A stretch of 64,000 nt of DNA from Spirochaetaceae bacterium (GTDB lineage: Bacteria; Spirochaetota; Spirochaetia; DSM-2461): positions 2,432,001 through 2,496,000 of the forward strand of contig OZ245056.1 in assembly GCA_965224705.1 (NCBI GenBank). Direction: 5' to 3'. This document shows positions 9,763 through 64,000 of the stretch, one piece after another. The position numbers were made by a program, and so were the translations under genes. Numbering within the stretch: the first letter of the stretch is position 1; every line of letters begins with the position of its first letter. The notes beneath the pieces are model-generated. The model saw nothing but the letters and a program-made list of their open reading frames with translations, was not told where the DNA came from and made no database searches.

Positions 9763-10263
9763 ATGCAGGTTCTGACATTGGCTGCTTCATCTCTCATTGC
9801 CGGTATGACAAGTTTGATATTCATTTTATGGTGGAATAAGCGCATAAAGGATAAAGCCGGTACTCAGAAAGCAGTCAATCGGCTGCAGTCTGAGATTGGA
9901 GAACTTATTACCGAGATTAACAGTACAACTGAACGCAGTATTGCATTGTTGGAGAACAAAATATCATCTTTGAACGCCTTGATTGACAGAGCAGGCAGAA
10001 TTCAAAAGGTTCTGACAATAGAAAAAGAAAGAAATGAATCAGCTGACCGTATATACACTGAACTGGGCAGGAGTAAGTCACTTCCGATAGTTCCTCCCGA
10101 CCAATCCCAGGGCTCCAGAACAAATTTTGACTCTTTATCCGATCGGAACAAGGTTCTTTTCCTCCGCCGTCAGGGTGATACCATCGATTCCATTACAAAG
10201 TCACTGGCAATGAGTCGGGGTGAGGTGGAATTGATCATTGCTCTCTACGACGGTAATTCCTGA
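9763..10263 (+). CDS. Membrane-anchored coiled-coil protein with C-terminal HTH-like end
   Basis: N-terminal TM helix, coiled coil, ITKSLAMSRGEVELII C-terminus. Confidence 0.75.
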   Translation: MQVLTLAASSLIAGMTSLIFILWWNKRIKDKAGTQKAVNRLQSEIGELITEINSTTERSIALLENKISSLNALIDRAGRIQKVLTIEKERNESADRIYTELGRSKSLPIVPPDQSQGSRTNFDSLSDRNKVLFLRRQGDTIDSITKSLAMSRGEVELIIALYDGNS

Positions 10264-10287
10264 CACGATGAAGATGTCCATTGCTTT

Positions 10288-10785
10288 TCAGGCCGTCGAT
10301 TCTGTCCCCCGGCTCATGACTACCTTGCCCGTGCGGACCAGTTCCATTATGCCGAATGGTTTCATCATCTGCTGAAAGGCATCCACTTTTGTTGTTTGTC
10401 CGGTTATCTGGAATGTCATGGTTTCATCGCTGATATCCACAGCCTGACTGCGAAAGGTATCAGCAATCTGGAGGATTTGAGTCCGTATTTCTGGACGGCA
10501 GGTAACTTTAACCAATGCGAGTTCCCGCTGCACAACATTGTCTGCGACGTGATCGACGGCATGGATAACATCAACAAGACGGTTGAGCTGAGCAAGCATT
10601 AGAGTCAGTGTTCGTTCATCGCCGGTTGCTTCAATATTCATTCGGGAGAATTGGGCAGATTGACCCTGGGATACAACGAGACTGTCGATGTTGTAGCCGC
10701 GTCTGGCAAAAACCAATGCAATCCGGGTAAGCACACCTGGCTTATTGCTTACCAGAAGGCTGATCGTGTGCTTCATTGTATTCAT
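10288..10785 (-). CDS. ilvN: Acetolactate synthase small subunit
   Basis: HTISLLVSNKPGVLTRIALVFARRGYNIDSL ACT domain; ELVRTG. Confidence 0.96.
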   Translation of the reverse strand: MNTMKHTISLLVSNKPGVLTRIALVFARRGYNIDSLVVSQGQSAQFSRMNIEATGDERTLTLMLAQLNRLVDVIHAVDHVADNVVQRELALVKVTCRPEIRTQILQIADTFRSQAVDISDETMTFQITGQTTKVDAFQQMMKPFGIMELVRTGKVVMSRGTESTA

Positions 10786-12491
10786 GTTGTTTCCTCCTGT
10801 GTTTCATTCTCTCGAATCCTGGGGGCCTCGATTATCATTTCCTCGAGAGTGGCTCCGGCAGGCACCATTGGAAAAACATTATCATGCTGTTCTACCACAG
10901 CTTCAATCAAAAAGGGACCTTCATTCCAGTCGAGCGCTGTTCTCAATACCTTTCTTACATCGGAACTGCGTTTGACTCTCAAACCTTTTATACCGTATGC
11001 CGCAGCAAGCTTGATGAAGTCGGGGTTGCCGTCCAGATCCACACCCGTCAGACGATTCTCGTAAAAAAGATGCTGCCACTGACGAACCATACCCAGGTAA
11101 TTATTATTGATGACTAAGATTTTTACGGGCAATTTGCGGACGGCTGCAGTGGCCAGTTCACACAATGTCATCTGAAAAGACCCGTCGCCCACAATTGTAT
11201 AAACCCTTTTATCCGGTCTTGCTATCTGTGCCCCAATAGCCGCCGGAAGACCAAAACCCATTGTTCCGGCTCCTCCGGAGGTCAGCCAGTTTTCTCCTTT
11301 CGTGGATTTCACGAATTGGGCGGCCCACATTTGATGCTGACCCACATCCGTGCAGGCAATGGCATCGTCACCCATCATCAGGGCCATTTCTTCAATGATG
11401 TGCTGAGCTCTCAGTTTTCCTCCCTTGCGGTACTTGAGGGGGAATTCCCGCCGCCATCGGTTCACCTGCTTGATCCATTGTGCTGTATCATTGGGTGAGA
11501 GAAGAGGCAGGAGTTTTTGAAGGGAGTCTTTTGCATCACCAAGCACAGAACTCTGGGGGGAGATGATTTTACCGATTTCCACCGGATCTATATCGAAGTG
11601 GATTTTCACTGCGTTCGGGCAGAATTTGTCCGGGTTTCCCGTGATTCGATCATCCCAGCGGGCACCGATTGCCACGATCAGATCACTTTCACAGAGGGCT
11701 TTATTGGCATAGGCCGTGCCATGCATGCCTGGCAGCCCGAGGCTTAATTCATGGGTATCTGGAAAACTGCCCTTGCCGAGCAGTGTGGTGATAACAGGTA
11801 TTTTCATCTTCTCCGCTACTTTCAGGAGTTCGCTGGAGGCTCCGGACAATTGGACACCATGCCCGGCCATAATGATTGGTTTTTCCGCCCTGTTAATCAG
11901 GCTGGCTGCAATCTTAAGATCCTCGGGATTGGCTGACGGTACCTTGTGATAACCGGGAAGGTCGTACTCCTGATCGTCCGTAAACTCTATTTCCGATGCG
12001 GAGATATCCTTGGGAATATCGATGAGAACAGGTCCAGGGCGTCCTGTGGTTGCTATGTGAACAGCTTCCCTGATGACTCTTGCAATGTCATTCGGATTGG
12101 TTACCATGTAGGAGTGCTTCACGACGGGATAAGACATGCCAAGTACATCCGCTTCCTGAAACGCATCCAATCCGATGAAACGTGTGGCGGACTGCCCTGT
12201 CAGTATCAGCATGGGAACTGAGTCCATCATGGCTGTAAGGATTCCGGTAAGAGTATTGGTTGCTCCAGGTCCGGAAGTGACACATACAACTCCCGGCTTA
12301 GAACTGGATCGGGCATAACCATCAGCCATGTGAGTTGCACCCTGCTCATGCCGGGTAAGAACAAGTTCTACAGGATGATGCGTCAGAGCATCATATATGG
12401 GAATAGAATTCCCTCCAGGTATGCCGAAGACTTGACGAATTCCAATTTCATAGAGAACATCCAGGACAACTTCTGCTACGGTTTTCTTCAT
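10782..12491 (-). CDS. ilvB: Acetolactate synthase large subunit
   Basis: RHEQGATHMADGYAR, TDVGQHQMWAAQ, GDGSFQM TPP motif; ATG 12491 follows GGAGG. Confidence 0.97.
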   Translation of the reverse strand: MKKTVAEVVLDVLYEIGIRQVFGIPGGNSIPIYDALTHHPVELVLTRHEQGATHMADGYARSSSKPGVVCVTSGPGATNTLTGILTAMMDSVPMLILTGQSATRFIGLDAFQEADVLGMSYPVVKHSYMVTNPNDIARVIREAVHIATTGRPGPVLIDIPKDISASEIEFTDDQEYDLPGYHKVPSANPEDLKIAASLINRAEKPIIMAGHGVQLSGASSELLKVAEKMKIPVITTLLGKGSFPDTHELSLGLPGMHGTAYANKALCESDLIVAIGARWDDRITGNPDKFCPNAVKIHFDIDPVEIGKIISPQSSVLGDAKDSLQKLLPLLSPNDTAQWIKQVNRWRREFPLKYRKGGKLRAQHIIEEMALMMGDDAIACTDVGQHQMWAAQFVKSTKGENWLTSGGAGTMGFGLPAAIGAQIARPDKRVYTIVGDGSFQMTLCELATAAVRKLPVKILVINNNYLGMVRQWQHLFYENRLTGVDLDGNPDFIKLAAAYGIKGLRVKRSSDVRKVLRTALDWNEGPFLIEAVVEQHDNVFPMVPAGATLEEMIIEAPRIRENETQEETT

Positions 12492-40248: not shown

Positions 40249-40355
40249 GACTGAAAGAAATTTGAACACATGCATGAGGAGCCGTGTACGGACCCGTACG
40301 CACGGTTCTGTGAGAGGACGGCATCCCTGCTTTCGCAGGGTGCCTCCTACTCGAT
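39783..40355 (+). mobile_element. 5'-truncated group II intron, class C-like
   Basis: Domain V GAGCCGTGTACGGACCCGTACGCACGGTTC (40279-40308), domain VI with bulged A, ending ...CCTACTCGAT; left boundary approximate. Confidence 0.9.
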
Positions 40356-52029: not shown

Positions 52030-53367
52030 TTATTGCTTTACCGTCCTGACACGTCCGACAGACTCCAGGGAGTCTGCGAAACTGGCCATCACCTGAATTG
52101 CTTTCCGGTAGTGTTCTTTCTCCAATGCAGTCATAAAGGTAGTTCCGGATGTGCGATGGGAGGCGAATACCGGCGCGATACTCTGTTCAGCCATTCTGGT
52201 CAGCACAGCAGGGATGAGAGCTGCTTCATCTCCAAGATTCTCACCCACCGCCCCGACTATACAGAGGTCCGACCGTTTCTCAACCTCACTTAGATGCAGA
52301 TCTTCCTTCATGGTATCAATATCTCCATCCCCAGGATTCCGATTTTCAAGGGGTTCCAGAATGACCAGAAGTGTATCACACTGGCATGCTGAATACAAAA
52401 TTTTCCATCCCATCGCGGCCAAACTCTCCAGGATTTTCAACTGTAGAGAAAGGTTGTCCCCCAGATGGGCATTCTGAAATCGACAGACGGATACACCCAT
52501 CTTTCCGGCAACCCCGGTAATTCCCGGATGGGACTTCCTTTTTTTAATCACGATCATGGTTCCCGGAGCTTCGGGGATATTGGTATTCCGGATATTGATT
52601 GGAATTCCGGCGGTGCTGACAGGCTGAATAGCCTCTTCATGAAACACTTTTGCCCCCAGGGCCGAAAGTTCGCGAAGTTCCCTGAAAGAAACCTCTTCTA
52701 TGGGAGCAGGATCATCCACGATGCCGGGATCCGCTGCCAGCAGTCCCGATACATCGGTCCAGTTTTCATAAACCCGGGCCCCTGCGCCACGAGCTATCAC
52801 AGCACCGCTGATGTCGGACCCGCCGCGGCTGAAGGCCTTTATACCCCCTCTGGCATCCTGACCATAGAATCCTGGAATAACCACCTGGCTGTCGGGGGAA
52901 ACAGCCTGATCGATCAGTTTGTAGCTCTCCGACGAAAGTTTCCCCCGGGCATCAAATCGGATGATTTCTTCGGCATCCAGGAAGGAAAATCCAATGTATT
53001 CGGCAATGAGGCGGGCCAAAAAATGCTCCCCCCTGGATACGGCATAGTCATAGGATTTTTCACTCTGAATCCGGTCTTGAGCCTGATCAAGAAGCTCTTT
53101 CAGTCCTGAGCCAACTTTCAGATCGGCGGCTATCTCCAGAAATCTCTCACGGATGGGCTCAAAGTCTGCTTCAATTGACTTCTCCCTCACAGCAGCCTGG
53201 TAACAGGCGATTAAACGGTCGGTTATCTTTACATCGTTTCTGGTCCGCTTTCCTGGTGCCGATACAACGATCAATCGTCGCTCATTGTCTGATTGGACAA
53301 TGTCGGCACTTTTTTTTATTTGATCTGCCGACGCCAGAGAGGTTCCGCCGAATTTGACAACTTTCAT
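52030..53367 (-). CDS. Aspartate kinase with divergent regulatory domain
   Basis: KVVKFGGTSLA, VVSAPGKR, SRGE, FSRGGSDISG, ENWTDVSG..ADP. Confidence 0.93.
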   Translation of the reverse strand: MKVVKFGGTSLASADQIKKSADIVQSDNERRLIVVSAPGKRTRNDVKITDRLIACYQAAVREKSIEADFEPIRERFLEIAADLKVGSGLKELLDQAQDRIQSEKSYDYAVSRGEHFLARLIAEYIGFSFLDAEEIIRFDARGKLSSESYKLIDQAVSPDSQVVIPGFYGQDARGGIKAFSRGGSDISGAVIARGAGARVYENWTDVSGLLAADPGIVDDPAPIEEVSFRELRELSALGAKVFHEEAIQPVSTAGIPINIRNTNIPEAPGTMIVIKKRKSHPGITGVAGKMGVSVCRFQNAHLGDNLSLQLKILESLAAMGWKILYSACQCDTLLVILEPLENRNPGDGDIDTMKEDLHLSEVEKRSDLCIVGAVGENLGDEAALIPAVLTRMAEQSIAPVFASHRTSGTTFMTALEKEHYRKAIQVMASFADSLESVGRVRTVKQ

Positions 53368-53375
53368 AGCATCCT

Positions 53376-54557
53376 CTACTTGATGAATAGTTTTTGTGGG
53401 TATTCGATAAGCTTTTCACAGCCTGTTTCGGTAACAAGAAGGGGTTCGGAACACTCCACACCGCAGGTATCCAGCCAGATTCCCGGCATGAAGTGAATCG
53501 TCATCCCCGGTTTCAATACAGTTTTATCCCCTGGACGAAGGCTCAGGGTATGCTCCCCCCAGTCCGGGACATAGTTCAGACCAAAGGAATAGCCCACTCG
53601 AGAGGGTTTCTCAATACCCGTTCCGGCAAGATAACTGCGCCATTTCTCCTCCACCTCTTCGGCGGTAACTCCGGGTTTAATGAAATCCAGCGTTCCATTC
53701 AATCCCCTTATGACGGTATCCGAAATCCGCTGCAGATCCTCCGGCGGCTTTCCCAGGTAGAGAGTACGCGACAGCGGTACATTGTAGTGGTGACGGGCCC
53801 CCGCCAGTTCCAACAGCACTACATCTCCCTTTTGATAGTTTCTGTCTGGATTAAAGGTTAGATGGGCGGTACTTGTTCTCTCTGCCGTTGGCATTATGGG
53901 AAAGAGAGCCGTGGGATCTCCGCCGAATTCCCCGGTTCCCCAAATCTGAGCCTTCGCAACATTCGCCGCTGCGTCTTTTTCAGGAACTCCAGGGGCAATA
54001 CTTTCGACGGCCGCATCCATCACTTTCCTGCAGATTTCACTGGCCTCCCGGATTACGGCGATTTCCGCAGGTGATTTAATTGTTTTTATCCAGTTCACCA
54101 ACCCGGTGGCATCCATCTTCCTTGAGTGGGGGAGTTCTTCTTCCAGCTGGGTGTACATCCTGGCGTTGAACCAGTAGCCATCCATGTCTAAACCCATAGT
54201 CCGTTTTTCCCACCGCCTTTCTTTGATTATTTCCGCCACGTAGCTCATTGTATGAATATATCGGGATTGTACATATTCATCCCTGTATCCCCATATATGA
54301 TCCTGGGGAAGAAAAGACGTAATCCGGGCCCCATTGGAATCCTGCTCCCGGCCAAACCAGTGGGGAGTATCATCATCCAGTGAAAGGAGGAGCCCCTGAT
54401 GGACATAGAAACTCCAGCCATCATAACCGGAAAGATAGTTCATCTGCCCAGGATCGGTGATCAGGAGTATTTCTATTCCCCGGTGATCCATGGACTGCTG
54501 GGTAAGTCGAATTCGCTGTTTGTATTCCTCCACACCGAAGACAGTCTGATTTCTCAT
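53376..54557 (-). CDS. eutD: Ectoine hydrolase EutD/DoeA-like (M24 fold), paralogue 2
   Basis: GYDGWSFYVHQ, AHLT, LELAG, PDWGEHTLSLRPGD, HFMPGIW. Confidence 0.88.
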   Translation of the reverse strand: MRNQTVFGVEEYKQRIRLTQQSMDHRGIEILLITDPGQMNYLSGYDGWSFYVHQGLLLSLDDDTPHWFGREQDSNGARITSFLPQDHIWGYRDEYVQSRYIHTMSYVAEIIKERRWEKRTMGLDMDGYWFNARMYTQLEEELPHSRKMDATGLVNWIKTIKSPAEIAVIREASEICRKVMDAAVESIAPGVPEKDAAANVAKAQIWGTGEFGGDPTALFPIMPTAERTSTAHLTFNPDRNYQKGDVVLLELAGARHHYNVPLSRTLYLGKPPEDLQRISDTVIRGLNGTLDFIKPGVTAEEVEEKWRSYLAGTGIEKPSRVGYSFGLNYVPDWGEHTLSLRPGDKTVLKPGMTIHFMPGIWLDTCGVECSEPLLVTETGCEKLIEYPQKLFIK

Positions 54558-54566
54558 TTGACCTTC

Positions 54567-55562
54567 CTAACGGGGAATCTGGATTCCGATTCCCCGCTCC
54601 CTGGCAAGTTTGCAGGCGCCCAGGGCAATCATTGTATCCTGCACACCAACCCCGGTCAGGTCGCAAACGGTGAAGTCATCTTCATTGGTTCGCCCGGGAT
54701 GGACTCCATCGATGAAGGTTCCCAATTCAGTCATGGGGGAGTCAGCGGTGAGAATTCCCTGCTCGACGGCAGATCGAACTTCGCCCAGACGCAGAGCCTG
54801 GCTTTTCATGTCACAGGCCAGAAGGTCAGCCCTGGCAAGTACCTCTGCTTCCAGTTCCTGTTTCTCTTCCGTGTCACTTCCCATGGCGGTGATGTGGAGG
54901 TTGGGGTGGATCCAGTCGGCCTTGATAAAACCCTCGCGGGCAGGGGTGGTGGTTACAACAACCTGACTTTCCCTCACCACCTCTTCTGCGGTGGTACTCT
55001 TAATAACCGTTACTCCCAGTTCAGATTCCATATCGTTGACATAGGCATTCTTCACATCCTCATTGCTTGAAGAATACATTCGGATTGTTTTTATGTCACG
55101 CATTAAAGCCAGGCCCCGCATCTGCCAGCGTGCCTGGGCTCCGGCTCCGATGACTCCAGCCTGACTGGCGTTTTCAGGGGCCAGGTATTCAGCGGCAATT
55201 GCTCCGGCTGCGCCTGTCCGGACATGGGTGAGATAGCCATTATCCAGTAAAACAGCATCGAGAAAACCAGTCTCTGCGGAAACAACCAGCATGAGACCGC
55301 TTCCTGAAGGAAGACCCAGTCGGGAATTCTGGAAAAAACCGGAAGCAACTTTGACGGCCATTCTGTCCATGCCCTTGATGAAGGCACTTTTTATATCAAC
55401 TTCACCCTGTTTTTCATCGACCGGAAGCATCATAATGGGGGGAACAATTGCATTTCCCCTCTGTAGTTCCTTGAATCCGAGGGCTGTATTTTCTACCACG
55501 GCATGATCCAGTTTGACCAGATCCATCAGTTCTTTCTCATTGACTATAATGATAGGTTCCAT
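54567..55562 (-). CDS. eutC: EutC-like cyclodeaminase/mu-crystallin family protein
   Basis: GEVDIKSA, KVASGFF.N..LGLPS, LLDNGYLT.VRTGAAG, DLTGVGVQDT; ectoine context. Confidence 0.88.
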   Translation of the reverse strand: MEPIIIVNEKELMDLVKLDHAVVENTALGFKELQRGNAIVPPIMMLPVDEKQGEVDIKSAFIKGMDRMAVKVASGFFQNSRLGLPSGSGLMLVVSAETGFLDAVLLDNGYLTHVRTGAAGAIAAEYLAPENASQAGVIGAGAQARWQMRGLALMRDIKTIRMYSSSNEDVKNAYVNDMESELGVTVIKSTTAEEVVRESQVVVTTTPAREGFIKADWIHPNLHITAMGSDTEEKQELEAEVLARADLLACDMKSQALRLGEVRSAVEQGILTADSPMTELGTFIDGVHPGRTNEDDFTVCDLTGVGVQDTMIALGACKLARERGIGIQIPR

Positions 55563-55571
55563 CTTCTCCTC

Positions 55572-56552
55572 CTATATATGTTTTGAAATAATACTGCGGT
55601 AACGGGCAGGATCGACACTGCTGCCGCTTATGACCAGGCCGACCTTCCTGTTCGTCACATCCAATTTTCCGGTTTGTACAGCTGCAATTCCCACCGCCGA
55701 AGCTCCTTCAATCACAAGGCTGTGTTCCGTAAAGGCGTATACCATACCCACTTCAATTTCCTCTTCGGTGATCACTATGTGATCATCTACAAACTTTTGA
55801 ATCAGAGGAAGAGTGTAGTTGTTTTCAATACCAATTCCGCCAAGCAGAGAGTCGGCATGCGTGTCTTTTTCCTCCACCTGCACCGGTTTTCCGGCCTTTA
55901 AACTCTCCAGCATGGCAGGAGAACGTTTTATTGTAACACCGACAATTCTTATGGAAGGTTTTATGGTTTTGGCCGCCAGGGCAATTCCCGCCAGAAGTCC
56001 GCCACCGGAGAGCGGCACCAGAATAACATCCATATCAGGCTCAGCCTGGAGCATTTCCAGAACGGTGGTTCCCTGTCCCGATACAATGGCAGGATCGTCA
56101 AAGGGGACTACCGGTATGTACTCCTCCTTTTCCATCAGCTCAAAGTAACGGCCCTCCGCTTCATCCTGGCAGGAACCGAATATCTCTACGTCTGCACCGA
56201 GGGCTTTAATCTTTTTCACCCGGTACTCGGGAACATTCTGCGAAAGACAAACCACCGCCCTGACACCTGTTTTTCCGGCAGCGAAGGAAACCGCTTTTCC
56301 ATGGTTTCCCGTGGAGAAGGTAATAACTCCACGCTGCCTCTCTTTTTCATTGAGGGATAGAATTTTATTGGCCGCCCCCCTTATCTTGAATGAGCCGGTA
56401 TTCTGGAGGCATTCAAGTTTCATAAAAATCTGATCCGCTCCCATGCTGTCTGCCAGGGCAGGCGATTCCCAGAGCGGTGTCTCCCAGATCATTGTCTTTA
56501 TTCTTTTTTTTGCCCTGTAGACATCCTCCAGGGTCGGCAGCCTGTGCTCCAC
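55572..56552 (-). CDS. eutB: EutB-like PLP-dependent dehydratase (threonine dehydratase family)
   Basis: KLECLQNTGSFKIRGA, STGNHG, VPLSGGGL, ADSLLGGIG..N.YT; GTG 56552 after AGGAG. Confidence 0.88.
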   Translation of the reverse strand: MEHRLPTLEDVYRAKKRIKTMIWETPLWESPALADSMGADQIFMKLECLQNTGSFKIRGAANKILSLNEKERQRGVITFSTGNHGKAVSFAAGKTGVRAVVCLSQNVPEYRVKKIKALGADVEIFGSCQDEAEGRYFELMEKEEYIPVVPFDDPAIVSGQGTTVLEMLQAEPDMDVILVPLSGGGLLAGIALAAKTIKPSIRIVGVTIKRSPAMLESLKAGKPVQVEEKDTHADSLLGGIGIENNYTLPLIQKFVDDHIVITEEEIEVGMVYAFTEHSLVIEGASAVGIAAVQTGKLDVTNRKVGLVISGSSVDPARYRSIISKHI

Positions 56553-56563
56553 TGCAGGAACTC

Positions 56564-57742
56564 CTATTTGGTGAAGATATCCATGGGGTATTCGAAAAGC
56601 TGCATACATCCCTCTTCAGTGACGATGAGGCTGGCATCAATTTCGAATCCAACATCCTCAAACCAGATGCCGGGTATCAGATGAAGGGCCATATTGGGTT
56701 TTAATACAGTTTTATCGCCGGGGCGGATACTGATTGTGTGCTCACCCCAGTCGGGAGGATAGTTGACACCTATGGAGTATCCTAAACGGGATTCTTTCAC
56801 AACTGTTGAGCCGCTGATGGCCTTCCGCCATCCTGCTTCCACCTCTTCAGCGGTGACTCCGGGCTTGATAAGCTCAAGAGTTTTTAAGAGACCATCGATA
56901 ACCACCGCTGCGGTATCCTTCATCAGTTGAGGCGGCTCGGGACCCAGAAAAATGGTTCTGGCAATGGGGCAGTGGTAGTGCCTGTAACACCCCGCCAGTT
57001 CCAGCAAACAGGCCTCATTCTCCTTGAAGGTCGCATCCGACCAGGTAAGGTGGGGAGTCTTTGTGGCTTCACCGGCCATTATGAGGGGTACGATGGCGGG
57101 ATAATCTCCGCCAAACTCCCTGGTTCCCGTGTATTCGGCCTGGACAATGGCGGCGGCGGCATCACACTCACGCACCCCAACATTGATACTTGAAATGGCT
57201 GCATCCATCACTTTTTCGGCAATATTGCCAGCCCGGTGCATCATTTCTATCTCAGCATCTGACTTAATCACCCTTACCCAGTTCACCAGGGCATTGGCAT
57301 TTTTCAACGTTCCCCGGGGCAGATCCTTTTCCAATTCCACATAACACTGGTGGGTGAAGAAAAACTGGTCCGATTCCACACCAATAATCCTGTTATCCCA
57401 CCCCTTTTCCCTTATCACGTCCGCCACAAAATTCATGGGATGTTTCACCAGGGAGTGAACATAGTCATCGGCGTAGCGGCGAATGTTATCTTTGGAGAGG
57501 AAGGTGGTGATGTCCGCCCCATTGCCGTCCATCTCCCGTCCCAGCCACATGGGTTCATCCTGGTCCAGAGAAACCAGAACCCCCTGGTGAACATAGAAAC
57601 TCCAGCCATCGTAGCCGGTAAGGTAGTTCATATTGGCAGGATGACTCACCAGAAGAAGATCAATCCCCCATGCAGACATTGATTCTTTGGTCGCCCTCAC
57701 TCTACGGGCATATTCTTCACGCGTGAATACTGGCATATGCAT
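56564..57742 (-). CDS. eutD: Ectoine hydrolase EutD/DoeA-like (M24 fold), paralogue 1
   Basis: GYDGWSFYVHQ, GGDYPAIVP, PHLTW, ELAGCYRHYHCP, YPPDWGEHT. Confidence 0.9.
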   Translation of the reverse strand: MHMPVFTREEYARRVRATKESMSAWGIDLLLVSHPANMNYLTGYDGWSFYVHQGVLVSLDQDEPMWLGREMDGNGADITTFLSKDNIRRYADDYVHSLVKHPMNFVADVIREKGWDNRIIGVESDQFFFTHQCYVELEKDLPRGTLKNANALVNWVRVIKSDAEIEMMHRAGNIAEKVMDAAISSINVGVRECDAAAAIVQAEYTGTREFGGDYPAIVPLIMAGEATKTPHLTWSDATFKENEACLLELAGCYRHYHCPIARTIFLGPEPPQLMKDTAAVVIDGLLKTLELIKPGVTAEEVEAGWRKAISGSTVVKESRLGYSIGVNYPPDWGEHTISIRPGDKTVLKPNMALHLIPGIWFEDVGFEIDASLIVTEEGCMQLFEYPMDIFTK

Positions 57743-57778
57743 CTCCTTTCCCTGTATGGTGACTGTTGAACAGCATGG

Positions 57779-58519
57779 CTACATAAATCCGTTATATTGA
57801 CGGGGGACCACGGCGGAATAGACATAATCTATCATCGTGTGATAGTCAAAGACCGGTAAACCTGTGGCCTCCCTGACAGCCCTGGCATAGGGTGGGAGGA
57901 GGCTGCACTCAAGAAGGATCATCTCCACCCGGGGATCAGATTCAACAATCCGCTCTGCCTCCACCACCACCTCCTTCTCAATACGGTTCTGATCGAGATA
58001 GCCTGCCTCATTAAAAACCGCCTCATGAAAGTGTTCCGATTTCTCAAGTCCCCTCATCACCAGATCGGAACCATCCTTGATCCCAATCTGCCGCAGAATG
58101 AAATCATCCAGGGAAGGAAGATTGGCGGTAATAACCCCAATTTTTCCCTTTCGTGAAAGCATCATGCGCATGAATGGGATTTGAAGCAGGCTGGAGAGGA
58201 ATACAGGAATTTTTACGGCTTCCTGGATATCCCTTTGGAAAAGTGCCATGAATCCGCAGTCTCCTGTGATTGCTCTGACACCTTCGGTCTCCAACTCCCG
58301 TGCTCCCTTTTTAAGGCTTTCGACCAGACTCATATCGTGCTCCATGATTCTGGCAACCGAAAAACCAGGGATTCGCTGAAATCTCACAGGATAATCATAG
58401 CTTGTGGCGTTGGCGACATCCCCGGGTATGAAGGGAACGTAGTTTTCCAATAGAATGATACCAATGGCCTCGCCATAACTGAGCTGCCCGGGTTTTACTT
58501 TATATACCATATCAATCAA
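57779..58519 (-). CDS. Asp/Glu racemase-superfamily protein
   Basis: IPGDVANA, two-cysteine pattern AITGDCGF and ILLECSLLPPY. Confidence 0.8.
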   Translation of the reverse strand: MIDMVYKVKPGQLSYGEAIGIILLENYVPFIPGDVANATSYDYPVRFQRIPGFSVARIMEHDMSLVESLKKGARELETEGVRAITGDCGFMALFQRDIQEAVKIPVFLSSLLQIPFMRMMLSRKGKIGVITANLPSLDDFILRQIGIKDGSDLVMRGLEKSEHFHEAVFNEAGYLDQNRIEKEVVVEAERIVESDPRVEMILLECSLLPPYARAVREATGLPVFDYHTMIDYVYSAVVPRQYNGFM

Positions 58520-58525
58520 CCAGCT

Positions 58526-59806
58526 TTAACGCACAAATGCATGATTGGGCAGCCAGGTGGCAATTCCCGGGAAGAAAATCAGCAGAGCAGTAGCCAGAAG
58601 GAGGATCATGATGAAGGGTGGTGTATTCTTGATGACTTCAAAATAAGGCCGCCGGAATACTAGCTGGGCCGTAAAAATATCACACCCAAAGGGTGGCGTG
58701 GCCGATCCAATCGCTGCCTGAAGGGTAACAATGGTTCCAAGGAGAACGGGGTCAACCCCTGTGGAAATTACATAGGGCTGAAAGATCGGGCTCAATACAT
58801 AGATCGCCACTATGGGATCGACAAACATACAGGCCACGAAGTAAGCCGCCGCTATGGTGAAAATCAACTGGAGCTGACCAGGATCAGTCCCCAGTATAAC
58901 AGGCATAATTGCCTGGGGGATCCTTAAAAAGCTGATAAGCCAGGAAAATGCCTGTCCCGCTCCAACCAGAACAAACACAACTCCGGTGATAACTCCTGTA
59001 TCCATCAGGATCTTCACCAGTTTCTTGAAACTGAGGGTACGATAGACCAGACCTTCAAGAAGAAGCGCATAGAGTACGGCTACCGCCGCCGCTTCGGTGG
59101 GACTGAATATTCCCGCATAGATTCCGCCGACGATGATCAGGGGAAATCCGAGTACCAGTATCCCCTGTTTTACAGCCTTCCAGCGTTCTGCCCAGGAGGC
59201 CCGGGGTATGACTCCTACTTTTTTTATTCGGGAGTAGAAGTAGCAGTAAACCGAAAAAAGTAAGAAAATCATAAGTCCCGGGATAATACCTGCCAGAAAG
59301 AGCTTCCCCACAGATGTGGAGGTGACGACTCCATACACGATGAATCCAATGCTTGGAGGAATTAAAAAGGCGATGTCACTGGAATTGATTATCAAACCCA
59401 GGGTAAATGAGCTTTCATAGCCTGCCTTTAAAAGCATGGGCCGCATGGTTCCGCCAATGGCAGCCACCGTTGCCTGAGTAGAACCGGAAACCGCTCCAAA
59501 GAGGGTACAACTGGCATTTGTGGTAATTGGGAGTCCGCCGTGGATATGACCCACGAAAGATTTTACCATATTAATCAGCCGGGAAGCCACCTGACCGGAG
59601 GTGATGATACTCGCTCCCAGGATGAACATGGGAACACAAACTAATGCGGGAGGAGAAATCCCCGTCAATACCTGCTGAACCAGGACCTGCATGTTGAAAG
59701 TGGGGATGTTGATTTCCAGGTGCAGCAGCAGCGATCCAAGAATGACAACCATAAAGGGAAATCCCAGAAGGAGCATCCCTACCATGCTTATCCAGAGCAA
59801 ATTCAT
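58526..59806 (-). CDS. teaC: TRAP transporter large permease (TeaC/UehC-like)
   Basis: SCTLFGAVSGSTQATV, IINSSDIAFLIPPSIG, IGSATPPFGCDIFTA as recalled for TeaC. Confidence 0.88.
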   Translation of the reverse strand: MNLLWISMVGMLLLGFPFMVVILGSLLLHLEINIPTFNMQVLVQQVLTGISPPALVCVPMFILGASIITSGQVASRLINMVKSFVGHIHGGLPITTNASCTLFGAVSGSTQATVAAIGGTMRPMLLKAGYESSFTLGLIINSSDIAFLIPPSIGFIVYGVVTSTSVGKLFLAGIIPGLMIFLLFSVYCYFYSRIKKVGVIPRASWAERWKAVKQGILVLGFPLIIVGGIYAGIFSPTEAAAVAVLYALLLEGLVYRTLSFKKLVKILMDTGVITGVVFVLVGAGQAFSWLISFLRIPQAIMPVILGTDPGQLQLIFTIAAAYFVACMFVDPIVAIYVLSPIFQPYVISTGVDPVLLGTIVTLQAAIGSATPPFGCDIFTAQLVFRRPYFEVIKNTPPFIMILLLATALLIFFPGIATWLPNHAFVR

Positions 59807-60393
59807 ATCTCTACCTCCTGGTAGTCGAGTTCCTCTTCATAATCACTCTGCTGCTCCGGTGAAAGCCATACACTTTTCTCAACAATGTTTTTAGCAAAGG
59901 TTCTTACATATTGGATGCCTGCGGAAAAGAACCCGATGGGGGTGATGATCAGGGGAATCCAGGAGGGGATTCGGAGGGCAGAACTCTCCTGTCCCAGCTC
60001 AAACACCTTGGCCATATATTGGAAGGAGTGGAATGCCATTATGAACATCACTATGGCACTGACGGCTGATATCACGAAAATAAAAACCTTTTCCACCTTC
60101 TCGTTCATTAGATCCAGAAAGGCTCCCATTCGTATATGCCGTGCTTTTCTGGCGGCGTAGCTTATCCCCACGAAGGTGGTGAAAATGATGAGGAATTCAG
60201 ATACCTCATCGGCAAAATAAATGGCCTGGAAGAAGGTTCGGGCGATAACGTTACTGATTAACAGAATCGCAAGGAAGCTGATACAGAGACAGAGGGCCCC
60301 CACTTCAAAGGCATCCACACCTCGTCCCAAATAATGGAAAAACCCTCTCTTCCGTTCTTTACTCTCGTCGTTTGAAGTATTTTCGATATCCAT
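59803..60393 (-). CDS. teaB: TRAP transporter small permease (TeaB/UehB-like)
   Basis: Four TM segments, GISYAARKARHIRM. Confidence 0.85.
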   Translation of the reverse strand: MDIENTSNDESKERKRGFFHYLGRGVDAFEVGALCLCISFLAILLISNVIARTFFQAIYFADEVSEFLIIFTTFVGISYAARKARHIRMGAFLDLMNEKVEKVFIFVISAVSAIVMFIMAFHSFQYMAKVFELGQESSALRIPSWIPLIITPIGFFSAGIQYVRTFAKNIVEKSVWLSPEQQSDYEEELDYQEVEI

Positions 60394-60452
60394 ACTGTCC
60401 CCTGTATTGAGTAACGAAACGACAGACCATGCCGCCGTTCCGTTAGAAATTA

Positions 60453-61541
60453 CTATTTGATGCCCAGGGCTGCCTTGGCATCCGCGATGTCTTTTAGAAG
60501 TGTGTCCAGCACCAGCTGCGCATCACTGCCACCCATTTCAACATACTTTGGATAAACAGTTTCTGCAGCGGCCTTGAATTCGGCGATGGTTTCGTCATCA
60601 AACTCATGGAACTCAATGGAAGGCTTATCCGCCATGATCGCCGCTTTTGCCCTGGCATTTACATCGTCGATCCATTGAGCAGAGGGAATAACCGCATCGG
60701 CCCAGAATTTCTTCATATGATCCTGCTGCTCCCTGGTCAGAGAGTCGAAAAAGGCGGCATTGGCCGTAGGAATTCCAAGAAAAGGTTCGGCCCAGAATTG
60801 CGTGAAGTAGTCGGTCACTTCGTAGAACTTCATAGAGTGATCGGCAAACAGGGGGTTCACCTGGGCATCAATGAGACCGGTCTGCAAGGCACCGTAAACC
60901 TCACCGTAACTCATGGGAGTGGGGCTCATGCCATAGGCACGGAAGTCTTCGATAAGGATTTTAGAACCCATGAGACGGGTTTTCATTCCCTGGAGGTCGT
61001 CCATTCCCTTTACTTCGGCTTTGGAAGTCATCCACTGCCACCCTTCGTAAACTATTCCTAAAGGAACCAGGTCATTTTCACGGAATTTTTCCTCGATAAG
61101 AGGCATGAATTTACCATTCTTCAAAACCCACTGGAGGGTTTCAGGCATTTTTTCCCTGGGCCAGAGATAGTGAAGGGCAAGGACCTGTACCTGGGGAACG
61201 AAGCTCGAAATCCAGGCGTAGTCGGAGAATACGAATTCCACCACGCCGAGCTGTGCCAACTCATTGATATCCCTGGTATCTCCAAGGGATCCGTAGGGGT
61301 AAACGGTGATGTCGATCTTTTCATCGGTGTTTTCCCTCATGTAGTCTGCGAATTTCTCCGCCCAGACGGTCATGAAGTCCCCTTCAATTTCTTCAGAAGC
61401 AAGTTTGGCTTCTATTACATCACTGTCACCCGCGTCACCCGCAGTCTCTTCCTGCCCGGCAGCAAAAAGACCATGACTCAAACAAATCAGAGCCAAAATC
61501 ATTGTTAAACTGATAATCTTTGTAAACATAGTTTTCTCCAT
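60453..61541 (-). CDS. teaA: TRAP substrate-binding protein (TeaA/UehA-like)
   Basis: Signal peptide, EEIEGD, KTRLM, GEVYGALQTGLIDAQVNP. Confidence 0.82.
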   Translation of the reverse strand: MEKTMFTKIISLTMILALICLSHGLFAAGQEETAGDAGDSDVIEAKLASEEIEGDFMTVWAEKFADYMRENTDEKIDITVYPYGSLGDTRDINELAQLGVVEFVFSDYAWISSFVPQVQVLALHYLWPREKMPETLQWVLKNGKFMPLIEEKFRENDLVPLGIVYEGWQWMTSKAEVKGMDDLQGMKTRLMGSKILIEDFRAYGMSPTPMSYGEVYGALQTGLIDAQVNPLFADHSMKFYEVTDYFTQFWAEPFLGIPTANAAFFDSLTREQQDHMKKFWADAVIPSAQWIDDVNARAKAAIMADKPSIEFHEFDDETIAEFKAAAETVYPKYVEMGGSDAQLVLDTLLKDIADAKAALGIK

Positions 61542-61608
61542 TTCTTATTTGCGAGAGGGGTCAATCCTCTCTTCCGACTTTTCCTGAATCATTCCAGGCT
61601 GTTTCAGT

Positions 61609-62805
61609 TCAATCATTACCTCCTTTTTTTAAATACTCTATTGCCGTTCTTACGAAGAACTCAACTCCCAGAACCATGACATCCTCATCAATATTGAATC
61701 GAGCATTGTGATGGGGGAAATCAGTACCTTTCTTTCTATCAGCAGCTCCGAGAAAGGCAAAAACAGAGGGAACTCGAGAAGAAAAGGCCGAGAAATCCTC
61801 ACCTGCCATGGAGGCATGTTCTACCACCCTGTCAACTCCCCCCAATATCTTCTCCGCTATTCCACGGCTGAGGGCTGCCATCTTTACATCATTGATCACC
61901 GAGCAGTTTTCCTGTTTCAGTTCCACTTCAATTGTACAGCCATGGACAGCGGCGACTTTCTGTGCCAGATCCATCAATTTATCCGATGGACTGGAGCCGT
62001 TTTCCGGTTCATCGGCATAGAGGTAGCGAATTGATCCTTCCAGAACCACTTTGTCGGGGATAATATTGTTCTTTGAGCCGCCCTTGATGACACTGAACAT
62101 CAAGACCGTAGGATTCATGAGGCTGATTTCCCGGGTCTGAATTCTCTGGGCGGTCAGGACAATGTCAGAGGCAGCGATGATCGGGTCAATGGCGGTTTCG
62201 GGGTAGCCGGTGTGGCCGCCGTATCCTTTGACCGTCATCTTAAACACATCCATACTGGCCATAACTGCTCCGGCCTTGATTCCCATGGTTCCACTGGGAA
62301 GGGAGGTCCAGATATGGAGGCCCAGGGCTGCATGGGGGGAGGGATTTTTCATCACTCCATGCTCAACCATGAGTTCAGCTCCCGCAACCTCTTCGTTAGG
62401 TTCAAAGACAAACTTGACAGAACCCTCCAGAACCTCACGGAATTCACAGAGAACTTTGGCGGCGATCAACAGCATAGCCGTATGGGCATCATGACCACAG
62501 GCGTGCATTTTTCCGGGTATTTCAGACTTATAGGGAACGTCATTCTCCTCCTGTACCGGCAGTGCGTCCATGTCCGCCCGCAAAAGGAGTACCGGACTGG
62601 AGAGCTTTCCCTCAAGAACGGCTGTAATACCGGTGCCGGCTATTCGCCTGGGTTCCAATCCGAGATCCTTCAGGTAGGATTCAACGATCCCGGAGGTTCG
62701 ATGCTCCTCAAATCCCAATTCAGGATAACGGTGAAAGTCCCTCCTTAGCTCTATAAGTTCCTTTTCCAGCTCCCTGATGCGTTTTCGGATAGGGTCCCCG
62801 TCCAT
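61609..62805 (-). CDS. M20D family amidohydrolase (candidate N-acetyl-diaminobutyrate deacetylase)
   Basis: RRDFHRYPELGFEE, LRADMDALP, MHACGHDAH, EPNEE, GEDFS, HHNARF; substrate is inference from context. Confidence 0.9.
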   Translation of the reverse strand: MDGDPIRKRIRELEKELIELRRDFHRYPELGFEEHRTSGIVESYLKDLGLEPRRIAGTGITAVLEGKLSSPVLLLRADMDALPVQEENDVPYKSEIPGKMHACGHDAHTAMLLIAAKVLCEFREVLEGSVKFVFEPNEEVAGAELMVEHGVMKNPSPHAALGLHIWTSLPSGTMGIKAGAVMASMDVFKMTVKGYGGHTGYPETAIDPIIAASDIVLTAQRIQTREISLMNPTVLMFSVIKGGSKNNIIPDKVVLEGSIRYLYADEPENGSSPSDKLMDLAQKVAAVHGCTIEVELKQENCSVINDVKMAALSRGIAEKILGGVDRVVEHASMAGEDFSAFSSRVPSVFAFLGAADRKKGTDFPHHNARFNIDEDVMVLGVEFFVRTAIEYLKKGGND

Positions 62806-62808
62806 AGG

Positions 62809-63834
62809 CTATAGTAAATCTCTTTCTACAAGGGTTTCGACGATCTGAATGGCATTGAGAGCTGCTCCCTTGCGTACATTATTGGAAACAATCCACAGAT
62901 TGAGCCCATTTTCAATGGAAGAATCCTCTCGAATGCGTCCTACCAGGGTTTCATCCACATCGGTGCAGAATAGAGGCATGGGGTAGAGATTTTTTGCGGG
63001 ATCATCCTGAAGAATGATACTGGGAGCGTTTTTCAGGAGTTCCCGGGCCCTCTCTCGAGAGATATTTTTTTCGGTCTCAATGTTGACAGATTCGGAATGT
63101 CCCACCGCTACAGGAATTCGAACACAGGTGGCGGTTACCTTGATGTTTTCATCACCCATGATTTTTCGGGTTTCAAATATCATTTTATTCTCTTCTTTAG
63201 TGTATCCCCCATCCTGAAAGACATCAATGTGGGGGATGGCGTTAAAGCCCAGTTGATAGGTAAACCCTTTAGAATCCTGAATCTTTCTGGTTTTCAGGAA
63301 TTGTTCACTTTCATCATATAGAGAGTCGATTCCCTTCTTACCGGCACCGGCAGCGGCCTGGCAGGTGGACACAACCACCCTTTTAATCCTTCCTTCGTCA
63401 TGAAGGGGCTTTAATACAACCACCATCTGAATTGTGGAACAGTTGGGGTTGGCTATGATTCCTTTATGCCAGTCAAGATCCTGGGGGTTTACCTCGGGAA
63501 CCACCAGGGGACATTGATCGTCCATCCGCCAGGCAGAACTATTGTCGACTACAATGGCACCCATCTCGACTGCATCTGGAGCCAGGGCTTCACTGGCCGC
63601 CCCACCGGCGGAGAAAATGGCGATATCGATGTCCTTGAAGTTGTCTTTCTTTGCCTCTTTTACCTTACAGGGCCTGCCGTTAAACAGGATTTCTTTTCCA
63701 GCATTCATCGCCACATCCAGGGGGCGGAATTCTGTCACCGGAAAATTTCTCCTTTCCAGAGTTCGTATCATTTCACCGCCCACAAGTCCCATGGCTCCCA
63801 CAACGGCTATGTTGTAAGCTGTTTTCTTTTTCAT
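62809..63834 (-). CDS. asd: Aspartate-semialdehyde dehydrogenase (phosphorylating)
   Basis: VVGAMGLVG, DNSSAWRM, IIANPNCSTIQ, GHSES, NNVRKGAALNA; ATG 63834. Confidence 0.96.
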   Translation of the reverse strand: MKKKTAYNIAVVGAMGLVGGEMIRTLERRNFPVTEFRPLDVAMNAGKEILFNGRPCKVKEAKKDNFKDIDIAIFSAGGAASEALAPDAVEMGAIVVDNSSAWRMDDQCPLVVPEVNPQDLDWHKGIIANPNCSTIQMVVVLKPLHDEGRIKRVVVSTCQAAAGAGKKGIDSLYDESEQFLKTRKIQDSKGFTYQLGFNAIPHIDVFQDGGYTKEENKMIFETRKIMGDENIKVTATCVRIPVAVGHSESVNIETEKNISRERARELLKNAPSIILQDDPAKNLYPMPLFCTDVDETLVGRIREDSSIENGLNLWIVSNNVRKGAALNAIQIVETLVERDLL

Positions 63835-63841
63835 TAAGACT

Positions 63842-64000
63842 TCATACCTCCTCCAGGGGAAGCTTTTTCGCTTCAATGTCCTGAATGACACTGGCGATAA
63901 TCTCTATACCCTTCATTAGAAGCTCTTCCGTTATTACCAGAGGCGGTAACAAACGGGCTACGTTGGAATGGTGTCCGCCAACCTCAATCATAACACCCCT
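63842..64000 (-). CDS. C-terminus of a class III aminotransferase (diaminobutyrate transaminase-like), truncated by window end
   Basis: Own translation: RGVMIEVGGHHSNVARLLPPLVITEELLMKGIEIIASVIQDIEAKKLPLEEV*; not in the ORF track. Confidence 0.8.
   Translation of the reverse strand, partial: RGVMIEVGGHHSNVARLLPPLVITEELLMKGIEIIASVIQDIEAKKLPLEEV

Follow-up and report, generated by a model that had tools for sequence, protein, structure and literature searches.

We analysed a window of 64,000 nucleotides (nt) from the genome of a Spirochaetaceae bacterium (GCA_965224705.1, contig OZ245056.1; labelled G000 in the comparisons), corresponding to genome positions 2432001-2496000 of a single 3.006-Mb contig; the genome is 95% complete. 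The window carries a gene cluster for the breakdown of ectoine and hydroxyectoine in which a phosphorylating aspartate-semialdehyde dehydrogenase (Asd) and an aspartate kinase (Ask) may, by running in reverse, take the place of the aldehyde dehydrogenase (ALDH; DoeC or Ssd) of the known pathways. The cluster forms a single tight train on the minus strand, in the order iclR, doeD, asd, M20, TRAP-PQM (the genes of a tripartite ATP-independent periplasmic transporter), eutA, eutD1, eutB, eutC, eutD2 and ask, with intergenic gaps of 3-67 nt. Its genes are the following, in window coordinates unless the locus L001 is named:

L001:3337-4131: iclR regulator, upstream of doeD and beyond the window
63842..64000, minus strand: 3' end of doeD, diaminobutyrate:2-oxoglutarate transaminase (TIGR00709), which continues 1236 nt past the window end
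62809..63834 (open reading frame 62809-63891), minus strand: asd, B-type phosphorylating aspartate-semialdehyde dehydrogenase (PF01118 and PF02774)
61609..62805, minus strand: M20 amidohydrolase, predicted N-acetyl-diaminobutyrate deacetylase standing in for DoeB/EutE (TIGR01891, 323 bits, cut-off passed)
60453..61541, minus strand: TRAP solute-binding protein, UehA/TeaA-like (PF03480, E 4.6e-53)
59803..60393, minus strand: TRAP small permease, DctQ (PF04290, E 8e-24)
58526..59806, minus strand: TRAP large permease, DctM (PF06808, E 2.9e-103)
57779..58519, minus strand: eutA-like protein of the Asp/Glu racemase family (NF005679, 287 bits against a cut-off of 231, passed; weak Asp_Glu_race match)
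56564..57742, minus strand: eutD1, ectoine hydrolase, DoeA/EutD-like (TIGR02993, E 1.2e-136, 455.9 bits, below the cut-off of 613)
55572..56609, minus strand: eutB, pyridoxal-phosphate-dependent dehydratase (NF005680, hydroxyectoine utilization dehydratase EutB, E 2.7e-121, 404.5 bits against a cut-off of 413)
54567..55562, minus strand: eutC, ornithine cyclodeaminase family (NF006141, 418.1 bits against a cut-off of 408, passed; TIGR02992 EutC, E 3e-103)
53376..54557, minus strand: eutD2, second DoeA/EutD-like M24 hydrolase (TIGR02993, E 1e-124, 416.7 bits, below the cut-off of 613)
52030..53367, minus strand: ask, aspartate kinase of 445 residues, last gene of the train (PF00696 AA_kinase, E 1.2e-34)

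The start of asd is likely the ATG at 63834, 7 nt past the doeD stop codon and behind GGAGGAGG; ask begins 8 nt past the stop codon of eutD2 and is preceded by GAGGA. The complete doeD gene (L001:1842-3236) passes the cut-off of TIGR00709 (403.8 against 401.6 bits), and a divergent avtA gene follows beyond iclR, past the window end. The cluster genes have a third-position G+C content of 0.50-0.58 in a genome with a G+C content of 0.471, and neither ask nor asd is clearly set apart from its neighbours. An Rfam scan gave no riboswitch or leader in the vicinity of the cluster.

Homology identifies the cluster as a genuine operon for the catabolism of ectoine and hydroxyectoine. EutD1 has the ectoine hydrolase DoeA as its best solved relative (6twk, E 2e-107, full length); given its TIGR02993 score below the cut-off, EutD1 is best placed in a sister lineage of the proteobacterial enzymes, and it shares 51% identity with EutD2. 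The top three solved matches of the TRAP binding protein were 3fxb (E 8e-46), 2vpn/2vpo and 3gyy (E 7e-42), followed by 4pfi (E 5e-39), with the remaining solved TRAP binders starting from E 2e-27; we take 3fxb and 2vpn to be the ectoine-bound forms of UehA and TeaA. EutB, EutC and the eutA-like protein were matched at or near the cut-offs by the NCBIfam models of the same names. The cluster has no gene for a deacetylase of the DoeB/EutE family and holds the M20 amidohydrolase in its place, which matched the DoeB2 model NF038260 below its cut-off (E 1.5e-80, 270.9 bits against 550). A third eutD paralogue and a second eutA-like gene were seen off the main cluster in another spirochaete genome, G036 (L024, G036:C15, 7924-9856).

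The closest public relatives of the EutD proteins belong to Spirochaetaceae, Sediminispirochaeta and Sphaerochaetaceae, and the next closest to Gudongella, Halanaerobiaceae, Syntrophomonadaceae, Atribacteria and Desulfobacterales, with aerobes appearing only at 44-54% identity. Searches of the genome for haem-copper oxidase subunit I (COX1) and for cytochrome bd gave no match, although each family was matched in 9 of 14 control genomes, so that the anaerobic host assumed in the preliminary description of this DNA is a reasonable reading. The window segment 48000-64000, or parts of it, was also present at 95-100% identity in DNA runs and in two metatranscriptome runs labelled as mollusc metagenome, which suggests that this bacterium, or a strain close to it, lives in association with molluscs. 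In the two metatranscriptome runs, which come from one study, short low-depth contigs covered parts of eutD1, eutA, the TRAP genes, M20, asd and ask; none of them spans eutD2-ask, and DNA carry-over is possible, so these contigs are no proof of transcription or co-transcription.

The preliminary description had noted that asd and ask bracket the catabolic genes and that the window lacks an ALDH gene, and both observations were confirmed: no match to Aldedh (PF00171) was found in genome positions 2432001-2496000 or in the 18 kb beyond the window. Genome-wide there are seven PF00171 matches, all outside the window, and among them three full-length ALDHs, none in an ectoine context: one resembles 2-oxoglutarate-semialdehyde dehydrogenase, one is AldA-like and lies beside sugar genes, and one is of the ExaC type. 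A doeC gene or an ectABC cluster just upstream, which would have spoken against the proposal, was not there; doeD, iclR and the divergent avtA occupy that position. For doeC, ectA and ectC elsewhere in the genome, the answer is partial: the three ALDHs have contexts unrelated to ectoine, and ectoine synthase (EctC) gave no match, in a family search that matched no control genome either and is weak on that account. The importance of this step is illustrated by Halomonas elongata, in which a doeC knockout does not grow on ectoine although the strain has Asd and LysC, and growth of the doeC mutant on acetate is suppressed by ectoine (PMC3187862). This phenotype implies that semialdehyde derived from ectoine needs a dedicated, high-capacity and co-expressed consumer.

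The Asd encoded in the cluster looks fully functional. It passed the cut-offs of NF011456 (464.9 against 223 bits) and TIGR01296 (456.1 against 324.2 bits), aligned end to end with solved phosphorylating Asds, and keeps the motifs SSAWRM, NPNCST, TKEENK and CVRIPVAVGH at unchanged spacing. The residues Cys136, His277, Arg270, Glu243, Arg103 and Lys246 (Haemophilus influenzae numbering) are all retained; in aspartate-semialdehyde dehydrogenases, Cys136 is the nucleophile, His277 the acid-base catalyst, Arg270 and Glu243 bind the substrate, and Arg103 and Lys246 are phosphate ligands (PMC3276109). Because the catalytic residues and the phosphate ligands are kept, the enzyme should make the acyl phosphate, and nothing in its sequence points to a non-phosphorylating variant. 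The cofactor pocket is different. Taking Ser37 and Arg39 of the Streptococcus pneumoniae enzyme as the mark of an NADP-type pocket, we found that Asd does not carry it: at this position (window region 63700-63720) it reads L-D-V-A-M-N, where the solved Asds read (A/G)-S-x-R-S (five aligned of seven matches). Together with 17 other aligned spirochaete B-type Asds (L020, L021, L022, L027-L029, L034, L039, L103, L105, L106 and L194-L199), it follows the pattern L-D-(V/I/L/T)-x-x-x, in which the strand ends in an Asp and the Arg is missing. By the Rossmann-fold rule on a strand-end acidic residue, this predicts NAD rather than NADP as the cofactor, and the spirochaete B-type Asds may represent a natural NAD-preferring lineage. 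The NAD-type pocket is common to Asds that are linked to eut genes and to those that are not, and it does not discriminate between them.

Further support for the exchange of Asd for DoeC came from the surroundings of EutD relatives at 78 loci (tblastn, E<=1e-15, query cover of at least 50%). An ALDH gene was found in 16 of them and doeD followed by asd in six, whereas no locus carried both an ALDH gene and asd. The preliminary description had suggested a comparison of anaerobes with aerobes. Aerobic taxa account for all 16 loci with an ALDH gene, none of which has asd (three Bacillaceae, six Mesorhizobium, other Rhizobiales and a metagenome-assembled genome, or MAG, of Competibacteraceae), while the six doeD-asd loci belong to five spirochaetes and one MAG labelled Deltaproteobacteria. 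In every cluster with that doeD, asd lies directly after it (6/6 of these loci; 4/4 in the genome comparison). The Desulfobacterales and Halanaerobiaceae eut clusters among the 78 loci have neither an ALDH gene nor asd, and no doeD; their last steps would be encoded elsewhere. As an observation apart, the locus of the MAG labelled Deltaproteobacteria (L039, 1115-10054) has the order iclR-doeD-asd-eutA-M20-TRAP-eutD1 and an Asd that nests among those of spirochaetes, which means either a transfer of the module including asd or a mis-binned contig.

We then considered an even sample of 401 Spirochaetia genomes, in which relatives of EutD and Asd were counted at E<=1e-60. EutD-type genes occur in 42 of the genomes, hereafter eut+, and in 20 of the 155 genera. 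A relative of the B-type Asd of the cluster is present in 59 genomes, comprising 40 of the 42 eut+ genomes, with the two misses being only 55% and 68% complete, and 19 of the 359 without EutD (eut-). A hand tally from genus labels places it in 19 of the 20 eut+ genera and in 12 of the 135 eut- genera. Among the 19 eut- genomes, G158 has iclR-doeD-asd cut at a contig end; only four other relatives are at least 59% identical, and the rest 39-57%, several of the latter in ask-asd operons of small genomes.

The order from iclR to ask is also found in other families of the class, in G032 and G036, with identities to G000 of 50-75% for the catabolic genes, 66-68% for Asd and 41-43% for Ask. Another three MAG loci from spirochaetes (L027, L028 and L030) share it, so that the full order spans spirochaete families at an overall identity of 41-79%; a fourth MAG locus, L082, shows eutD2-ask at a contig start. 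In G027, doeD-asd is within the cluster and ask is on a different contig. The preliminary description had suggested a test of co-occurrence with eutD. Of the 42 eut+ genomes, 27 have an asd gene no more than 8 kb from eutD on one contig (25 of them the B-type gene), 22 have ask at 5 kb or less from a eutD gene, and 16 combine both. Of the rest, many are MAGs in which the cluster is distributed over more than one contig. In G000 and four others, ask follows directly after eutD2, at a distance of 8-63 nt.

The link between asd/ask and the eut genes survives rearrangement. The genome G235 has the order ask-eutD2, and in all four genomes of the family f54 (contigs G287:C79, G319:C86, G257:C113 and G345:C20) asd and ask share a contig with eut genes or are together on one. 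In three of these four, one of which also has a B-type copy, an EA-type asd lies 1.1-2.5 kb from eutD2, within the 8-kb limit used above, and ask is on that contig in two; the fourth, G345, has a B-type asd, ask and an EA-type asd on one contig with no eutD gene. This archaeal/EA-type asd beside eutD2 or near ask is a second, differently built association of aspartate-pathway and ectoine genes. Together, these comparisons make the replacement of DoeC by Asd well supported, and the position of asd beside doeD in place of an ALDH gene is conserved across many spirochaete families.

For Ask, the best NCBIfam model was the aspartate kinase NF006540 (E 2.6e-115, residues 1-427), and the protein scored below every curated aspartokinase cut-off (NF006540, 385.6 against 434 bits; TIGR00657, 200.4 against 208.7 bits). 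Its C-terminal ~180 residues align to aspartokinase models, and no Pfam ACT family was matched there at E<=0.1. Relatives of Ask have weak ACT_9 matches whether or not they are linked to eut genes; loss of the ACT domain was rejected as a mark of eut-linked kinases, because ACT matches are weak or missing among the unlinked relatives as well as the linked ones. Six matches to the amino-acid-kinase family were obtained genome-wide, identified by neighbourhood or model as proB, argB, pyrH, argA, a frame of 315 residues and ask. TIGR00657 matched the cluster ask alone, and five aspartokinase queries searched with tblastn all hit this locus only. No separate housekeeping lysC, of the kind that the preliminary description would have looked for, is present, and the cluster gene is the only aspartate kinase gene of the genome. 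A separate housekeeping asd does exist: a second copy, of the EA type, lies at ~650 kb among unrelated housekeeping genes. The preliminary description had counted sole copies of both genes, expressed independently of ectoine, as evidence against the route; ask is such a sole copy, and asd is not.

From these data, the route would run as follows. Homology and synteny show its first part: the TRAP system imports ectoine and hydroxyectoine, the EutD-type hydrolases and the M20 amidohydrolase release acetate and diaminobutyrate, and DoeD transaminates the latter to aspartate semialdehyde. Asd would then convert semialdehyde and phosphate to beta-aspartyl phosphate, with NAD+ as the predicted cofactor, and Ask would transfer the phosphoryl group to ADP, giving aspartate and one ATP. 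We infer the direction of flux and the ATP yield from the position of asd directly after doeD, the near-exclusive association of B-type Asd with eut genes, the mutual exclusion of asd and ALDH genes at eutD loci, and the want of any other known consumer of aspartyl phosphate. Thermodynamically, the aspartokinase equilibrium lies far toward ATP and aspartate, and routine assays of aspartate-semialdehyde dehydrogenase use the oxidative reaction. As the genome has no second Ask, we see the pair as bidirectional, its direction being set by the supply of semialdehyde, rather than as a dedicated catabolic copy. That Asd oxidises the semialdehyde derived from ectoine appears quite probable. The whole route, in which the aspartate pathway in reverse replaces the DoeC/Ssd step and yields ATP, is on balance somewhat favoured by the genomic evidence. 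We give an even chance to the fullest form of the proposal, namely that ectoine is fermented through an NAD-type Asd and Ask at one ATP per ectoine, the pair working in both directions, with Ask as an enzyme of substrate-level phosphorylation that has not been listed as such. As for the fate of the aspartate, the best aspartase/fumarase-family match in the genome (G000:C1:2259829-2261202, plus strand) scored 497.8 bits with the aspA model, below its cut-off of 681, and contains one in-frame TGA, which could mean that the gene is broken, that there are two frames, or that the codon is recoded.

Several observations weigh against this proposal. The genome contains dapA and thrC, and since ask is the sole aspartokinase gene, it must serve biosynthesis too, which requires that it run forward for some of the time, at the least, and be expressed in the absence of ectoine. 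Of the 401 Spirochaetia genomes, 113 have an Ask of this subfamily, 71 of them without EutD, and among the 80 metagenome Ask loci listed (36-45% identity; the closest clade, P0003-P0007, at 49-60%, is outside that listing) the gene comes after hom in 28, is beside asd in one and beside eutD in none. The subfamily is thus widespread, and its default role is normally biosynthetic. In four eut+ genomes that have long contigs (G027, G383, G394 and G122), ask lies elsewhere, and eut- spirochaetes carry plain two-gene operons, either ask-asd (G001 and G012, the latter beside avtA) or asd-ask (G021). In an Ask tree from a quick search (SH-aLRT support), five of the six eut-linked kinases fall in one clade (99), but the kinase of G000, together with that of its sister genome G009, is in a separate long-branch clade, whose sister group (88) consists of the G001, G012 and G003 kinases. 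Likewise, stand-alone copies from G215, G373 and G383, which are 75-79% identical to the Asd of G000, form one group with it (96/95). The asd/ask pair of G000 may therefore have been exchanged with resident copies. The related genomes among the 401 are not independent samples, and scans for promoters and terminators in the cluster and upstream of it stayed at chance level (found against expected, 12/12.6, 15/12.9, 5/3.7 and 1/3.7), so that they are uninformative about an internal ask promoter.

The sister genome adds to these points. G009 is without the segment from window position 53835 to genome position 2498346 (12.5 kb, from iclR through most of eutD2) and has kept ask, whose product is 89% identical to that of G000; ahead of ask it retains ~280 nt from the 3' end of eutD2, split into two pieces (L019, G009:C1:1368001-1388000, 10237-10936). 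Its only asd is of the EA type. These two facts indicate that ask is needed without the cluster and that an EA-type Asd suffices for biosynthesis. G009 also has ~420 nt without a G000 counterpart after the eutD2 remnants and an extra ~300 nt between gh4 and ask.

The alternative that best survives holds that asd and ask are the resident biosynthetic pair around which the ectoine genes settled, with the semialdehyde leaving by another exit, either through homoserine dehydrogenase to threonine and 2-oxobutyrate or through one of the three ALDHs. The sole copy of ask, its retention in G009 after loss of the cluster, the wide distribution of the subfamily (often as hom-ask) and the grouping of both G000 proteins with non-eut copies all fit this idea, as do the location of hom 7 kb off inside the window and the ask-asd operons without eut genes, of which that of G012 stands beside avtA as in the G000 cluster. 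It is harder to reconcile with the near confinement of B-type Asd to eut+ genomes (40/42 against 19/359) and with the invariable position of asd right after doeD; chance insertion would neither rebuild the order across families nor keep the link seen in f54 and G235. The Asd tree, from a careful search and with the distant G179, G199 and G021 copies as its root, bears on the same question: eut-embedded Asds form a basal grade, inside which both the group of G000 with the stand-alone copies and the operon copies of G001 and G012 are nested (93/90). Under this rooting, on which the conclusion depends, we read the nested non-eut Asds as copies that left or outlived a cluster, which fits escape and not capture. 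This alternative is, in our view, unlikely.

Another alternative accepts that Asd oxidises the semialdehyde but supposes that the aspartyl phosphate is hydrolysed or otherwise lost, Ask being at the end of the operon simply as a biosynthetic gene. The comparative signal is indeed much stronger for Asd than for Ask, and the four eut+ genomes with ask elsewhere on long contigs are in line with it. However, wasting an acyl phosphate would be improbable for a fermenter, and the cluster contains no acylphosphatase-type gene. The proximity of ask to eutD in 22 of 42 genomes, its place directly after eutD2 in G000 and four others, and the presence of Ask somewhere in all 42 eut+ genomes also speak against a bystander, and we regard this possibility as decidedly doubtful. 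Finally, a forward run of Ask, Asd and the transaminase to diaminobutyrate, for ectoine or another product, resembles the known Ask-Asd-EctB entry to ectoine synthesis and the presence of ask_ect in ect clusters (PMC5924519), but it is very improbable, as the remaining nine genes encode an importer and hydrolases of the kind that is usual in catabolic clusters, no acetyltransferase gene is in the cluster, and the genome gave no match to ectoine synthase, in the search that lacked a positive control.

The proposed reverse use of Asd and Ask can be placed beside the systems already described, DoeABCD of H. elongata and EutABCDE-Atf-Ssd with UehABC of Ruegeria and Sinorhizobium (PMC3187862; PMC5924519). 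The G000 cluster shares with them the DoeA/EutD hydrolase, EutA, EutB and EutC, the diaminobutyrate transaminase and the TRAP importer, and thereby the same chemistry down to aspartate semialdehyde. It differs in what follows, since an ALDH (DoeC/Ssd) acts in the canonical systems, and G000 has asd after the transaminase gene and ask at the operon end. It differs as well in having an M20 amidohydrolase instead of the deacetylase DoeB/EutE, two EutD paralogues, and an IclR-type regulator in place of EnuR/AsnC-type ones. The host is an anaerobic spirochaete, whereas all 539 EutD-bearing genomes of a survey cited in a 2018 review are reported as Proteobacteria (PMC5924519, section 8.2), and ectoine breakdown is described with the ALDH step only both there and in PMC3187862. 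In a search of the full-text literature, with subscription journals outside its scope, we found neither a reverse Asd/Ask catabolic route nor anaerobic degradation of ectoine.

Single elements of the proposal do have parallels. Carbamate kinase of the arginine deiminase pathway has the same amino-acid-kinase fold as Ask and works in the ATP-forming direction. The sequence of Asd and Ask, in which an aldehyde and phosphate give an acyl phosphate and a kinase then forms ATP, is that of glyceraldehyde-3-phosphate dehydrogenase and phosphoglycerate kinase, and aspartate-semialdehyde dehydrogenase is mechanistically similar to the former (PMC3276109). Aspartokinase genes co-located with ectoine genes are known as Ask_Ect in ectABC(D) clusters, on the biosynthetic side only in the section concerned (PMC5924519, section 5.2.5); Ask_Ect is an extra copy that feeds synthesis, whereas the G000 gene is the only copy and lies in a catabolic context with no EctC match (no positive control). 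The common lysC-asd or ask-asd operons combine the same two enzyme families, which are adjacent in G001, G012 and G021; in G000, by contrast, 11 kb of ectoine genes stand between asd and ask, and a diaminobutyrate transaminase gene precedes them. Beside the well-supported exchange of Asd for DoeC, the ATP-yielding last step is plausible, and the two would constitute a new form of the ectoine catabolic pathway. Outside the cluster, the window contains a match to a group II catalytic intron domain at 40277-40355 on the plus strand (Rfam, 47.9 bits; gathering score 40).

If the proposal is correct, the aspartyl-phosphate route would join the few known substrate-level ATP-forming reactions of fermenting anaerobes, and a core pair of biosynthetic enzymes would be shown to run both ways. 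An Asd with a predicted preference for NAD would also be of interest for engineering of the aspartate pathway. Since ectoine is a major osmolyte of marine and hypersaline environments, the route would explain its turnover in anoxic settings.

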